A stretch of DNA of 64,000 nt from Pseudomonadota bacterium (GCA_021781965.1 JAJXVU010000002.1:28788-92787), one strand, 5' to 3'. Positions 5,822 through 11,467 are shown, counted from the first letter of the stretch. Translations and numbers: made by a program. The notes: a model not told the origin generated them from the letters alone.

Positions 5822-5885
5822 GGTGGTTGTTGTTAACCGCTATCTGATTCTTTATACCACCATCTCCTGTGCTCTATTTTTTGCT

Positions 5886-8789
5886 TTAGCGCAAGCGAAG
5901 AGACAAAGGCTGGCTCGAGCAATGAGAGCGATTACTAGAAGTATGTATTTCCTGTGCTACGCTGAGGTTGACTCTCGGCTCGAATTTATTCAGCTCAAAT
6001 AATCTACTACAAGCCTTATAGAGGGTCTCTACTTCAGGCATACCCATTTCTATCGAATTATCCGATTCCCGTAAAGGCTCGTCACCCACATGCACAGCTT
6101 TATTGCGAATTTTGTACTTGCATGAATCTAATATATCTTTTTGTTCAGTGAGAAATTCATATCCCTCTTTTTTTAATTGATTATAACATTCCACGATCAC
6201 TATGAGCGAAGCATAGCAAGAACCCAAGTTTGCGGGGTAGTATCCAAAGAATGCTCGCTCTACCCCTCCTCTACTGGCATCAAATGGTTTGAATGTGGCC
6301 TTTAATGCTTCTAACTCAGCATTCATTATTTTTATTAAATTGCTGGGATCACGGTCTATTGGGCGAAATTTAGGTATTTCACGAGAAGGTTTATTGCCTT
6401 GGCTCAACGCTTTCGCTAAATCTATTAGGAAAGATTTTTCTTCTAGGAAATCGAACCAATGTACATAAACTTCATGTATAAGAAAATTTCTAAGTTCCCA
6501 TAGCACAGGCTCTTCCTCTTTGTTTATTCCTTTATTAACAAAAGCACGGATTATCCAATAATAAATGGCACGAATATACACAGCGTTGCTGGGTGCTTTT
6601 TCATATTCTGCTATAAGGCTAGTTAAGGATTCCCTAACGGTTCTGTCTACCCACTTTTTACTCGTATCGGAATGCCTCGTTGCTGGAATTATTTTCTTAC
6701 TTTTTCTAAAAAGTGGCTCTTCTCCTAAGGTAAGTGGGATGTTGTCAGGAAGACGAACTAAGCGATGGTAACTTATATCATCCTCGTTAACAGTGCTTTT
6801 TCTAGGAGGTCGTGGCAATTCCCCTTCTACAGGCCTCAGAACGGTTAGAGATTTTCGAGAAGCTGTTGGTGCAAAAGATATTTCTTCTGCTACGGCAGGA
6901 ATCGGTGTAGTAACCTCTAGAACTGGTTGCTTACTAGAAGGCGTTTGGGATGAAAAAAATTTTAGACTTTGGTTAGTACTCTCTTTATGATGGGTCTTTC
7001 TTTTTGAGCTGCCAACAGGAACTGGTAAATTACTTGGCTCCAAATAAACTTGAGATGGTTGTCTTTCCGACATAATAGGGCGGTTTTTTTGATTGCCCCT
7101 GTTCTCTATTTTGCTTTTAATTTTTCTCTCTCTAAGCTGTTTATGGAAATCTTGTTTTAATTGGTCAATTAAATCCGCTTTAGCTTGAAATATGCCTTCT
7201 AGCTCTGGCTTAAATTGTATGGAGTCAAGTGCCTTTTTGGCGAATATTTTTCTAGCCTTCCCTAACCATTCCATGTTTTCTACATTTTCTAATACCATGC
7301 TCTGCCATTCCTCTTCGTGGCATATATACAGTTTAAACTGGTTACCTATTTTACACAGAATAAGTGCATCCGCCCGTTTTGATTTTTCTTTATCATCGTC
7401 GCTTAATTCTTGTCCTGGTGATAAAAGCTTACCAAAAATAGCAGGTGCAATAGGGGAAAAGCAACCTGAAGAGGAAGGTGGTTGTATGCCGTCTGTTTTT
7501 TGTGGCGTAGCTGCTGATGGTTTTTCTTTATTTATACTTTGATCCATTGTTCCTCGGGCGAAATTAGATAGGTTATTCTGGGTCTCCTTCCCTTTTTTTA
7601 ATGTATTAAGATATTCCGTATATTTTCTCTCGTCCCGCAATACCCCATTAAAATAGTCAACAGTAACGACAAAACCAAAATCCCCCTTCTTCTCCCAACG
7701 AGTAAAACCAGCTTGCTTTAATTCTTCAGAAAGGCGGATAGGGTTTTCTTTATCTTCCAAAGTATAAGCAACTTCCATAGGGGGATTTTTATTTTTTTTG
7801 TTTATAGTAGAATGTCGCACATCAATTTTTGATATATTCTCGTTCTTAACTCCTAACTTACATATTATGTTTCTAGCACGGCATATTATAATTTCATGAT
7901 TCTTCTTTTCACGCAATAACGTTGCGATGGCAGCATGACCGGCTTTAAGTGCAATATCTAATGGCGTATCATTTTCCTTATTTTTAAGGCTAATATCCGC
8001 ATTTGATTCAAGTAATAATTTTACTGCCTCAATATTGTATCGTGATGCAATATGTAAAGGAGTTGATCCCTTTTCGTCTTTAGCATCCACATCAACATCT
8101 TTGTTAAACAACAATAATAATTCTAGTGCCTTAATATGTCCATTAAATGCCGCAAGATGTAAAGGGGTTGATCCTTTTTCGTCTTTAGCATTCACATCAG
8201 CACCTTTTTCAAGCAATAAAATCAGTGCCTCAGCATCTCCTTTAGATGCGGCAGCATGTAAAGCAGTTAATCCCTGTTCCTCTTTAGCATTCACCTCAGC
8301 ACCTTTTTCAAGCAAAAATCCTAGTTCCTTAGTACGTCCCTTCAATGAGGCAATATGTAACGGGGTTATTCCATTTTTTTGTTTAGCATTAACCTCAGCA
8401 CCGTGCTCAACCAATAATGTCGCTACCTCAATATAACCCTCCCCGATAGAATAATGTAGGGGCGTTATTCCACTTTCTTGTTTAGCATTAACCTCAGCAT
8501 CGCGCTCAAGCAATAATTTCACCACCTCAGTATGCCCATTAAGTGAAGCAAGGTGCAAAGCAGTTAGTTCACTTTTTTGTTTAGCATTAACCTCAGCACC
8601 GCGCTCAAGCAATAATTTTACTACCTTAACACGTCCATGGACTGCGGCAAGATGTAACGCAGTGTCTTCATCCTCATTTCGATAATTAATATTATTGATA
8701 TCTTTTTCAATGAAAGATTGTACAGCAGCAAAATTGCATTCCGTGGCAGCCTCAAAATATTCTGCCATAGGCTTTGAATGTGTAGACAT
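5886..8789 (-). CDS. Large ankyrin-repeat protein (967 aa): about 8 N-terminal ANK repeats plus about 650 aa of unknown C-terminal region; effector-like
   Basis: Tandem 33-aa repeats (TPLHLAA..G..EVVKLLLE.GA.VNAK) fill residues ~30-290. The remainder has no recognisable domain and contains Lys/Ser-rich low-complexity stretches. Good RBS (AAGGGGGG) before the ATG at 8789. Confidence 0.8.
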   Translation of the reverse strand: MSTHSKPMAEYFEAATECNFAAVQSFIEKDINNINYRNEDEDTALHLAAVHGRVKVVKLLLERGAEVNAKQKSELTALHLASLNGHTEVVKLLLERDAEVNAKQESGITPLHYSIGEGYIEVATLLVEHGAEVNAKQKNGITPLHIASLKGRTKELGFLLEKGAEVNAKEEQGLTALHAAASKGDAEALILLLEKGADVNAKDEKGSTPLHLAAFNGHIKALELLLLFNKDVDVDAKDEKGSTPLHIASRYNIEAVKLLLESNADISLKNKENDTPLDIALKAGHAAIATLLREKKNHEIIICRARNIICKLGVKNENISKIDVRHSTINKKNKNPPMEVAYTLEDKENPIRLSEELKQAGFTRWEKKGDFGFVVTVDYFNGVLRDERKYTEYLNTLKKGKETQNNLSNFARGTMDQSINKEKPSAATPQKTDGIQPPSSSGCFSPIAPAIFGKLLSPGQELSDDDKEKSKRADALILCKIGNQFKLYICHEEEWQSMVLENVENMEWLGKARKIFAKKALDSIQFKPELEGIFQAKADLIDQLKQDFHKQLRERKIKSKIENRGNQKNRPIMSERQPSQVYLEPSNLPVPVGSSKRKTHHKESTNQSLKFFSSQTPSSKQPVLEVTTPIPAVAEEISFAPTASRKSLTVLRPVEGELPRPPRKSTVNEDDISYHRLVRLPDNIPLTLGEEPLFRKSKKIIPATRHSDTSKKWVDRTVRESLTSLIAEYEKAPSNAVYIRAIYYWIIRAFVNKGINKEEEPVLWELRNFLIHEVYVHWFDFLEEKSFLIDLAKALSQGNKPSREIPKFRPIDRDPSNLIKIMNAELEALKATFKPFDASRGGVERAFFGYYPANLGSCYASLIVIVECYNQLKKEGYEFLTEQKDILDSCKYKIRNKAVHVGDEPLRESDNSIEMGMPEVETLYKACSRLFELNKFEPRVNLSVAQEIHTSSNRSHCSSQPLSLRLR

Positions 8790-8945
8790 AGTAACTTACC
8801 CCCCTTTAATATTATAATTTATTTTATCACGGCAAAAGCGATAAATAAATCATGCACCTTGCTGATTCAGCTAAATTTATTGTAAAGACAAAACCGTTAT
8901 TGAATAATTTTGGTATAAATATTACATACAGAACATCTCTATTCA

Positions 8946-9018
8946 TAGTCCGATTATGAAGGGCAAGCGGCAATGATGATGGCAAGTTATGTTTCTAAAA
9001 TTAAATGCGATTCCAAGA
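8946..9018 (+). repeat. Diverged partial copy (~85% identity) of the hypF 3' region (5441-5513)
   Basis: Direct comparison: gcaagcggcaatgatgatggcaagttatgtttctaaaattaaatgcgattccaagatttggatat versus hypF acaggcggcgatgatgctggaaagttgtgtgtctaaaattaaatgcgattccaagggttggatat. Confidence 0.7.
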
Positions 9019-9207
9019 TTTGGATATACCCAGGCTCTTGCTACTTAATGATTTTCATTGAAAAATCAAAAAAATATATGATTCTTGCAATAAACAAGTA
9101 ACCATTTGACAAAACACGGCTGGATTGGCATAGTTCACTCCCATTTGGGTTGGTCTTTTGTACTCTAGACCGCTTCTGCTTATAATAAAAATTAACCGGA
9201 GAATTTC

Positions 9208-10622: not shown

Positions 10623-10682
10623 TTGCGTTACTCCTTTCTGTAGTAAATATTGCTCAATAGAAAAGATAACTACTCTCTACAT

Positions 10683-10707
10683 CCGCGCCCTTTCGGTCGC
10701 GGCTCGG
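10683..10707. repeat. REP-like element, variant half-site CCGCGCCCTTTCGGTCGCGGCTCGG
   Basis: Same core as the other REP copies with a CCTTT variant. An identical variant occurs at 36747-36771, between cydA and cydB. Confidence 0.7.
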
Positions 10708-11339
10708 TTCATCCGGTTACGATAAAAAAATATCTTCTCATCATTGAGGCTAAACAAATTTTTAAAAGATAAATTTATCTCCGCGGCGGACCACGCCCAC
10801 CATAAGGAACGCAATATGTGCGTCTAAAAAAGCCCATCTCTAGTTTTCTCCTTGGTCTATTGCCCATATAGATACATGTGTAGGCCCAAAATGCCTCACA
10901 GCTACCGGAAAAGAAACTAAGGAGCGCGGACTTCTACAGACGCCACAATCCGACGGTTAGAACTTTTTAAGACCCAAAAGAGCTGCTTTTTAGTCAAAAA
11001 ATGGCCTAAACAGGAAGAATTGTTTATTTTTTGGTCCAACTTATGGTGAGCAAGATGCCGCTGCGGGCGGCGACGATGTGGTATAATTTTCATTAGCTTG
11101 TCCTTATGTTGTTAAGGTGCAAGTTAGCCTCTTTGGCGTGCTTTGACTCATGCCAGAGGGGCGACTTAGGTTACGCAACTTTGAGTTTTTCCGAACGATA
11201 GCGAGGACTCAAGGTTGCACTCTTTATGCGTGAGATTCAATCACCACGCATAAGTACATCATAGCAAAGAAAAATATAAAATAAAAGCTTTTGGTAACTA
11301 CTCGCGCATTGTAGATACATTAGAGTATATATTTTCTTT

Positions 11340-11404
11340 CCGCTCCCTGACGGTCGCGGCTCGGTTGCAAACGGATGAACCGAGCCGCGACCGTCAGGGA
11401 GCGG
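11340..11404. repeat. REP-like element, complete palindrome (27-bp arms, 11-nt loop)
   Basis: ccgctccctgacggtcgcggctcggtt gcaaacggatg aaccgagccgcgaccgtcagggagcgg. The arms are perfect reverse complements. Confidence 0.85.
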
Positions 11405-11467
11405 ATGTTAGAGAGCGAAGGAAAGTAGTTATAGCTTTTCTTAAAAAAATATGAGGAAAACGAATCT

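Follow-up and report, generated by a model that had tools for sequence, protein, structure and literature searches.

Mobile elements integrate in the 3' ends of genes and thereby duplicate them, as is the case for islands in tRNA genes and for e14 or phage 21 in the icd gene of E. coli, for which prophage e14 carries a replacement 3' end. In Rhs and type VI secretion system (T6SS) loci, C-termini or effectors of effector-immunity loci were proposed to be displaced and to leave orphaned 3' regions, with homology-facilitated illegitimate recombination as the underlying process (Kirchberger et al., 2017, PMC5361080, citing Jackson et al., 2009). Here, we analyzed a locus that resembles both situations, the interval 5822-11467 in a 64,000-nt stretch of DNA (the window) from an uncultured freshwater gammaproteobacterium. 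The interval separates hypA, hypB and hypF from hypC, hypD and hypE and contains two ankyrin-repeat genes (ank967 and ank339), a small basic open reading frame (ORF; orf58) accompanied by a CsrA-family gene, and a fragment derived from hypF. The hypF-hypC junction is a site of DNA accumulation in the clade of the window genome. Our reading is that the interval has a layered history, that the hypF fragment is left over from a hypF tail displaced by recombination and that an outward-facing promoter may serve hypCDE. We estimate the probability of this whole statement at roughly 60%, and we consider the layered history together with the relic status of the hypF fragment as highly likely.

As in Rhs/T6SS loci, a conserved upstream gene is the anchor, new DNA was added directly behind it, its former 3' end was moved further downstream as a same-strand orphan, and repetition of such events builds an array; this whole pattern is found here in two lineages that differ in the breakpoint. 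However, the anchor is the housekeeping gene hypF instead of a polymorphic toxin gene, the cargo consists of ankyrin genes and a csrA module instead of toxin tips and immunity genes, there is no logic of immunity retention, and the mechanism at the hyp locus is one that we infer. The resemblance to integration into gene 3' ends consists in the intact target and the partial, diverged copy of its 3' region at the far side of the insert. In contrast to such integrations, the locus has no integrase, no shared core site and no element boundaries, and the relic in the window is internal to hypF (codons 619-643) and not terminal. The locus is a new instance of a known and fairly ordinary kind of genome remodelling and not a new kind of system. 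Step by step, about ten related lineages document how the conserved operon was broken up and yet apparently kept working, with intermediate stages persisting in different strains and two independent relics pointing to a recombination route. The locus may also be useful for illustrating how genes are gained next to a conserved anchor in loci other than the toxin loci for which the process is usually discussed, and it offers three leads: a putative internal promoter with a structured leader, the orf58-csrA module and an ankyrin-linked domain with very few relatives.

DNA accumulation at the hypF-hypC junction

Relatives were collected by a genome scan with HypF and by look-ups of orf58, ank339 and ank967 homologs, which yielded about ten informative lineages, while a metagenome scan with the HypF C-terminus returned three distant loci only. 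The named relatives are uncultured Gammaproteobacteria, with one more distant relative labelled Legionellales; contigs identical or near-identical to the window come from metagenome assemblies. Gene calls and Pfam domains confirmed that hypABF end at 5821 and that hypCDE restart at 11468, as well as the presence of two ankyrin-repeat genes and a CsrA-family gene (ORFs, Pfam) between them. The resulting hypF-hypC gap of 5646 bp compares with gaps of 22, 305 and 455 bp in L002, L003 and L004, in which both genes are contiguous. They are likewise contiguous in L018 and L019, with a gap of about 70 bp, and adjacent in L006, with a gap of about 670 bp. Since the more distant relatives have both genes adjacent, the split is derived, and the ancestral state was a contiguous hypABFCDE operon upstream of the NiFe-hydrogenase structural genes.

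The original prediction had described the interval as a single insert of about 5.6 kb and had suggested the comparison with relatives that showed this view to be incorrect. Instead, at least three or four events that differ in age are stacked in the interval, because the ank339 and orf58-csrA layers are common to relatives and the block around ank967 is confined to one lineage. The oldest layers are an ank339-family gene on the hyp strand and the orf58-csrA module on the opposite strand, and they are present, or left as remnants, in relatives even at only ~81% HypF identity. In L030 (HypF 81%), hypF is followed by an ankyrin gene (ank388), a 36-codon orf58 remnant and hypC. In L027-L029, the order is ank296, a phd remnant, ank372, an orf58 remnant with a conserved 200-nt region, and hypC. 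L005 and L022-L024 contain hypF, a phd remnant, csrA, orf58 and hypC without an ankyrin gene, whereas L020 and L021 contain an ank459-like gene, a hypF relic (hypF'), phd, ank265, csrA, orf58 and hypC. In L001, hypF is followed by ank459 and the end of the contig. A younger block of ~3.1 kb (5852-8951) with ank967 is confined to the window lineage, and the hypF scar belongs only to this block. Among the relatives, ank967 and the hypF fragment are limited to the window lineage, L026 and L013 (90% amino acid and 94-97% nucleotide identity), and their co-occurrence to the window lineage and L026. The youngest layer is formed by copies of a 28-nt repeat.

Codon usage had been suggested as a further check, and base composition by codon position was not informative: the GC content at third codon positions (GC3) was 0.30-0.34 in the ankyrin genes and 0.27-0.44 in the hyp genes, and because the difference is small and the ranges overlap, GC3 cannot be used to date or source the insert. 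When contig L009 was compared with window 1-19221, identity was 100% up to ~11600, inside hypC, followed by ~11% divergence; L012, which originates from the same sample, resembles the window from 11437 onwards. L009 represents either a recombinant strain or an assembly chimera; if it is not a chimera, diverged lineages would have recombined within the hyp genes.

The hypF fragment and the route of its displacement

The intact hypF gene (3593-5821, + strand; Pfam Acylphosphatase, zf-HYPF, Sua5/YrdC, HypF_C and HypF_C_2) is open from a GTG at 3572 (749 amino acids), but gene callers pick the later start. A hypF-derived fragment in the interval had been predicted at about 85% identity; the fragment is real, with coordinates that differ by 6-15 nt from those predicted and an identity of 88%. 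A repeat search aligned 8952-9027 with codons 619-643 of hypF (5426-5501, + strand) over 76 nt, of which 67 are identical, without gaps, on the same strand and in the hypF frame. The match to hypF genes of relatives begins at 8950, so that the relic spans 8950-9027 (+ strand), with sharp boundaries on both sides. Because BLASTN, which the original prediction had proposed for the fragment, found two copies only, with E about 1e-21 in the 64-kb window, it is neither a chance match nor a dispersed repeat in the window and 30 related loci. The flanks of the fragment have no hypF similarity, and none was found further in 8790-9207.

To the left of the fragment, the ank967 upstream region (8790-8951) belongs to the ank967 block and accompanies ank967 in L013 and L026, where it is 95-99% identical. 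To the right, after ~20 nt, 9044-9114 matches DNA located behind hypF or upstream of ank339 orthologs in relatives: 9044-9079 aligns with DNA upstream of ank265 in L020 and 9049-9114 with the spacer between hypF and ank459 in L001. At the opposite end of the block, the native sequence 3' of hypF (5822-5851), which ends in CTATCTGATTCT, forms its left edge, and 5840-5851 matches the L001 spacer directly after hypF in 11 of 12 nt, which is a weak similarity. The interpretation of the fragment as a hypF scar was thus supported: it marks the right edge of the ank967 block, is present only together with ank967 and has a counterpart in L020.

One may ask whether the fragment has a function, either by pairing with hypF mRNA or as a regulatory site within the region of the divergent ank967 and ank339 promoters. 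It is located between two divergent genes and was retained in L026 at about 5% divergence. However, its conservation in L026 (95%, in a 121-nt stretch) is no better than that of the flanks (92-99%), it has no Rfam match, neither strand has a special fold (z = +1.2) and it has accumulated substitutions that change the encoded residues. A functional element is therefore extremely improbable.

The second relic, in L020, comprises 68-73 nt and repeats the final 24 codons of hypF (726-749), the stop codon and a few further bases at 85-88% identity. It directly follows the right end of the ank459-like gene, an ankyrin gene other than ank967, and runs into the native neighbour phd in the same way as hypF does in L005 and L022. 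The L001 contig (hypF-ank459) ends ~18-27 nt before the site of the L020 relic, a break of the kind that a repeat would produce. By sequence comparison, the two relics represent two independent events with breakpoints at codons 619 and 726 and different cargo genes that left the same kind of relic. The pattern of an intact anchor, novel DNA and a same-strand fragment of the anchor's 3' region is found in both the window and L020; in L020 the fragment leads directly into the native downstream DNA of the anchor, and in the window it would do so only after ~20 nt and an assumed deletion of ~335 nt.

Both relics bear on the possibility that the fragment originated as a templated patch, in which nearby hypF sequence was copied as filler during break repair when ank967 was inserted, so that a longer copy never existed. 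The shortness of the fragment (76 nt), its sharp ends and the lack of any more hypF similarity in 8790-9207 fit such a patch. However, the L020 relic reaches the natural hypF stop codon and the native neighbour, as expected for a displaced tail, and the 12% divergence from the resident hypF would have to postdate the event entirely. We consider a patch as quite unlikely.

The relics are also relevant for a site-specific integration into the hypF 3' end by an integrase-borne element that has since decayed to its cargo genes. In two lineages, the inserted DNA is bordered by imperfect direct repeats of 70-76 nt that derive from a gene 3' region, as this scenario predicts. However, the relics come from different parts of hypF (619-643 and 726-749), precluding a common att site, and a search of Pfam and NCBIfam found no integrase or recombinase domains in the four main ORFs of the insert, on which grounds an integrase or integrative and conjugative element (ICE) remnant was rejected. 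A tRNA scan found no tRNA gene or other att-like feature, and the insert is therefore not a tRNA-linked island. Overall, site-specific integration is very unlikely.

In the reading that we prefer, the relic would be the remainder of a second, displaced hypF 3' end. The simplest description of the order is hypF with ~30 nt of native DNA, the 3.1-kb foreign block, a hypF tail that lacks ~335 nt, and the native continuation to ank339. Incoming DNA that carried hypF, or a 3' part of it, together with ank967 would have recombined homologously within or upstream of the resident hypF, and an illegitimate join would have connected its far end to codon 619 of the resident gene. The product would be an intact hypF, followed by the new gene and then the old hypF tail, most of which (~335 nt) would have been lost in a later deletion. 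In L020, the same type of event would have involved another ankyrin gene and another breakpoint, with the tail remaining undeleted. This specific route of homologous anchoring and an illegitimate join is proposed tentatively, at slightly less than an even chance. A Campbell-type integration of a circle that contained ank967 and ~430 nt of hypF 3' homology by a single crossover, with duplication of this homologous sequence on either side of the insert and the later loss of ~335 nt from one copy, would generate the same end product, a truncated hypF tail with a sharp start that leads into native downstream DNA. The same data fit both models, which cannot be told apart by them. However, neither a replicon nor an excision function nor a circular form has left any trace, and the circle must already have contained hypF sequence, so that we regard a Campbell-type event as unlikely.

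Several points weigh against displacement by recombination and against our reading as a whole. No donor arrangement was found, and the window case requires the extra internal deletion of ~335 nt. The hypF gene has no mosaic signal at codon 619 (5426): its identity to L001, L005 and L030 is uniform over the whole gene and the site patterns are unchanged at this codon, so that nothing shows that its present tail is foreign. The fragment is 88-90% identical to the hypF genes of the window, L001 and L005 alike, and its 76 nt therefore do not assign it to a lineage; one derived T is common to the fragment and the window hypF, and the other shared substitutions are ancestral or homoplastic. The left-edge homology of 12 nt and an apparent 7-nt duplication (TGATTCT / TGATTTT) are weak. 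In L013 (2999-3256), similarity to the window stops at 5943, inside the 3' end of ank967, and beyond that point the C-terminus of another convergent ankyrin-repeat gene is found in place of hypF. Because of this different neighbour, the history of the ank967 block is more complex than one event. Furthermore, some of the contigs, such as L009, may be chimeric assemblies, and the use of the outward promoter discussed below is deduced from sequence only.

The orf58-csrA module and the region upstream of hypC

Legionella strains contain 4 to 7 csrA-like genes, which comprise the core genes csrA and csrR and ICE-associated copies (Abbott et al., 2015, PMC4471563). The CsrA-family gene at 10446-10622 (- strand, 58 amino acids) is similarly a small gene with conserved RNA-binding residues in a non-canonical place within a variable region. 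In contrast to the Legionella copies, it has no ICE context and is paired with orf58 and a conserved structured region. It matched Pfam PF02599 with 83.5 bits and the NCBIfam models NF002469 (89.1 bits, cut-off 73) and TIGR00202 (80.5 bits, cut-off 70.1), and is the only csrA copy in the 64-kb window. Since csrA is missing at this site in L002-L004, its location is not ancestral.

The 58-codon orf58 (10917-11093, - strand) was always found upstream of csrA on the same strand, including in L025 (5974-6621), a locus outside the hyp genes and next to a DDE transposase. Five lineages including L025 have retained the ORF, with in-frame indels, but its codon-position coding signature is weak. Between orf58 and csrA, a conserved 20-codon ORF (MGFFRR(T/A)YCVPYGGRGPP; 10775-10837, - strand) has a good ribosome-binding site.

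A perfect extended -10 promoter-like motif, TGGTATAAT, at 11079-11087 (+ strand) faces hypC, and all relatives with an interrupted hypF-hypC junction have the 14-mer TGGTATAATTTTCA in front of hypC, as far as their contigs cover the site. L027 and L030 have lost csrA and most of orf58, yet kept the part with the promoter motif. L025, the non-hyp locus, retains only the core GGTATAATTTTCA, with TGC for TGT, which faces another gene there. The motif at 11079-11087 probably represents a promoter that drives hypCDE. Such an outward promoter would have come with the orf58-csrA module and would keep hypCDE expressed after the separation from hypABF.

Directly downstream lies a conserved structured non-coding region with four hairpins (11088-11295, + strand). 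It is 97-98% identical to L005, compared with about 88% for coding DNA, and its predicted fold is far stronger on the plus strand (z = -6.5) than on the minus strand (z = -2.7). In an alignment fold of six sequences, the differences were located in loops or kept pairing through G-U, and no two-sided compensatory changes were seen. The region also adjoins orf59-csrA in L025 and may represent a leader of hypCDE or a small RNA. No Rfam family was detected in the whole window at the gathering threshold or in 5700-11600 at E up to 1. A sponge RNA of the CsrB/Rsm type was rejected because GGA motifs, counted by eye, were about as frequent as expected by chance (~7 on the plus and 6 on the minus strand). 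A leader peptide was likewise rejected after inspection by eye, since conservation of the ATG does not extend to L020, and in L025 a stop codon follows it. The segment just 5' of hypC (11296-11445) occurs in two alleles, a repeat palindrome in the window and another GC-rich, repeat-bearing segment of ~240 nt in L005 (13222-13465) and L010 (2314-2472); L010 is otherwise 99.7% identical to the window.

The palindrome is made of a 28-nt unit, TCCGCTCCCTGACGGTCGCGGCTCGGTT, that is present in nine copies in the window at up to 5 mismatches, with a further inverted pair at 39814-39877 detected by BLASTN. A 13-nt core of this unit has 9 matches against 0.49 expected, a number that none of 100 shuffles reached. 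At least three palindromes of the repetitive extragenic palindromic (REP) type had been predicted in the interval, and the repeats are real, but only one of the three loci is palindromic. At 11339-11405, two units (11339-11366 and 11378-11405) form a perfect 28-bp stem with an 11-nt loop (-67 kcal/mol, z = -12). The units on both sides of csrA, at 10334-10361 and 10682-10709 (both + strand), are single and non-palindromic, and their surroundings fold like shuffled sequences (z = -0.07 for 10320-10380 and -1.15 for 10665-10730). With REP sequences and bacterial interspersed mosaic elements (BIMEs), the unit shares its shortness, its GC-rich sequence and intergenic location, its many copies, the strong hairpins formed by inverted pairs, and a recent, lineage-specific distribution; in contrast to them, the single unit is not itself a palindrome, and no associated RAYT (Y1) transposase was seen, although no search aimed at one was made. 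The pair at 11339-11405 does not occur at this site in L005, L010 or L020, and the unit is confined to the window lineage except for one copy in L005, indicating that it is a late invader. The repeats did not cause the older layers, because they are not located at the edges of those layers.

Ankyrin genes and neighbouring genes

The two ankyrin genes, with Pfam ankyrin matches down to E = 1e-69, are separated by a spacer of 418 nt. The older gene, ank339 (9208-10227, + strand, 339 amino acids), has orthologs with 96% identity in L026, 63% in L027 (ank372) and 56% in L030 (ank388). The L020 gene ank265 is 26% identical to ank339 and is a positional ortholog by flank homology alone. Short stretches of upstream and downstream DNA are common to ank339, ank372, ank388 and ank265, and from these comparisons we read ank339 as an old resident of the hypF-hypC junction. 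Its upstream region (9044-9207, + strand) is homologous to the regions upstream of ank265 in L020 and ank372 in L027 and to the hypF-ank459 spacer of L001. Within this region, a promoter scan found a promoter-like site (9106-9134) with TTGACA, a 17-nt spacer and CATAGT preceded by TG. Residues 25-168 of ank339 gave a borderline match to the Pfam family of Shigella OspC (26.9 bits, cut-off 25.6; profile positions 148-289 of 292). Dot/Icm effectors of the Legionella type also contain ankyrin repeats, but the NCBIfam T4SS_Ank models scored 16-115 bits (cut-offs 450-1400) and matched only the repeats, and thus orthology to a named effector was not found.

The product of ank967 (5886-8789, - strand, 967 amino acids; Pfam ankyrin families) has ~9 ankyrin repeats, followed by ~670 amino acids of orphan sequence. 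Its C-terminal ~260 amino acids contain two RNxxxH motifs, which are kept in all relatives that cover them. Only four relatives were found among 1.84e9 representative proteins, and two of the four also have N-terminal ankyrin repeats. The Rx4-6H motif of RNase domains of the HEPN type is present in the ank967 C-terminus; however, no HEPN family matched significantly, the best Pfam hit being HepT-like at E = 0.037 in two of five members. A PDB profile search with the C-terminus found nothing, and its AlphaFold2 model (pLDDT 71.5) gave a best E of 0.46 and TM-scores of at most 0.25 in a Foldseek search against the PDB. The C-terminus is a very rare all-alpha domain.

These properties could be combined into a more far-reaching scenario, in which the hypF 3' end is a recurrent landing site for effector-like ankyrin genes in a lineage that looks host-associated, with each event leaving a relic. 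The promoter and the 200-nt leader of the csrA module would have been co-opted for hypCDE, and ank967 would contain an undescribed all-alpha RNxxxH domain in an RNase L-like arrangement. As a whole, this scenario is doubtful.

All six genes of the complete Hyp maturation set are intact, each with the domains of its family. In addition to hypF, these are hypA (2532-2879; Pfam HypA, E = 2.6e-26), hypB (2881-3615; cobW/HypB), hypC (11468-11686; HupF_HypC), hypD (11683-12807; HypD) and hypE (12800-13822; AIRS plus AIRS_C), all on the + strand. The hypB ORF is open from 2803, but its probable start is 2881, where gene callers place it on identical contigs; in the calls on L009 and L011, HypB has 244 amino acids. 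Downstream of the hyp genes follow a parE/phd pair and then the NiFe-hydrogenase structural genes with hycI. Housekeeping genes, including those for arginyl-tRNA synthetase (ArgRS), serine hydroxymethyltransferase (SHMT), cytochrome bd and Kup, fill the remainder of the window, which is therefore chromosomal.

The parE/phd toxin-antitoxin pair was inserted, together with a copy of the repeat unit (13894-13921), between hypE and the hydrogenase genes (13823-14794). At this position they are not present in L002 and L020, and the hypE junction of L027 contains three unrelated genes. A full phd (89% nucleotide identity) or a remnant of it adjoins hypF or hypF' in L020, L005, L022 and L027. Further additions were observed at other junctions of the operon: L022-L024 have an extra ~510 bp between hypD and hypE, and L005 has an extra ~450 bp between hypB and hypF (9548-10001), which holds a 42-nt repeat that is also found in the window at 19344-19386.

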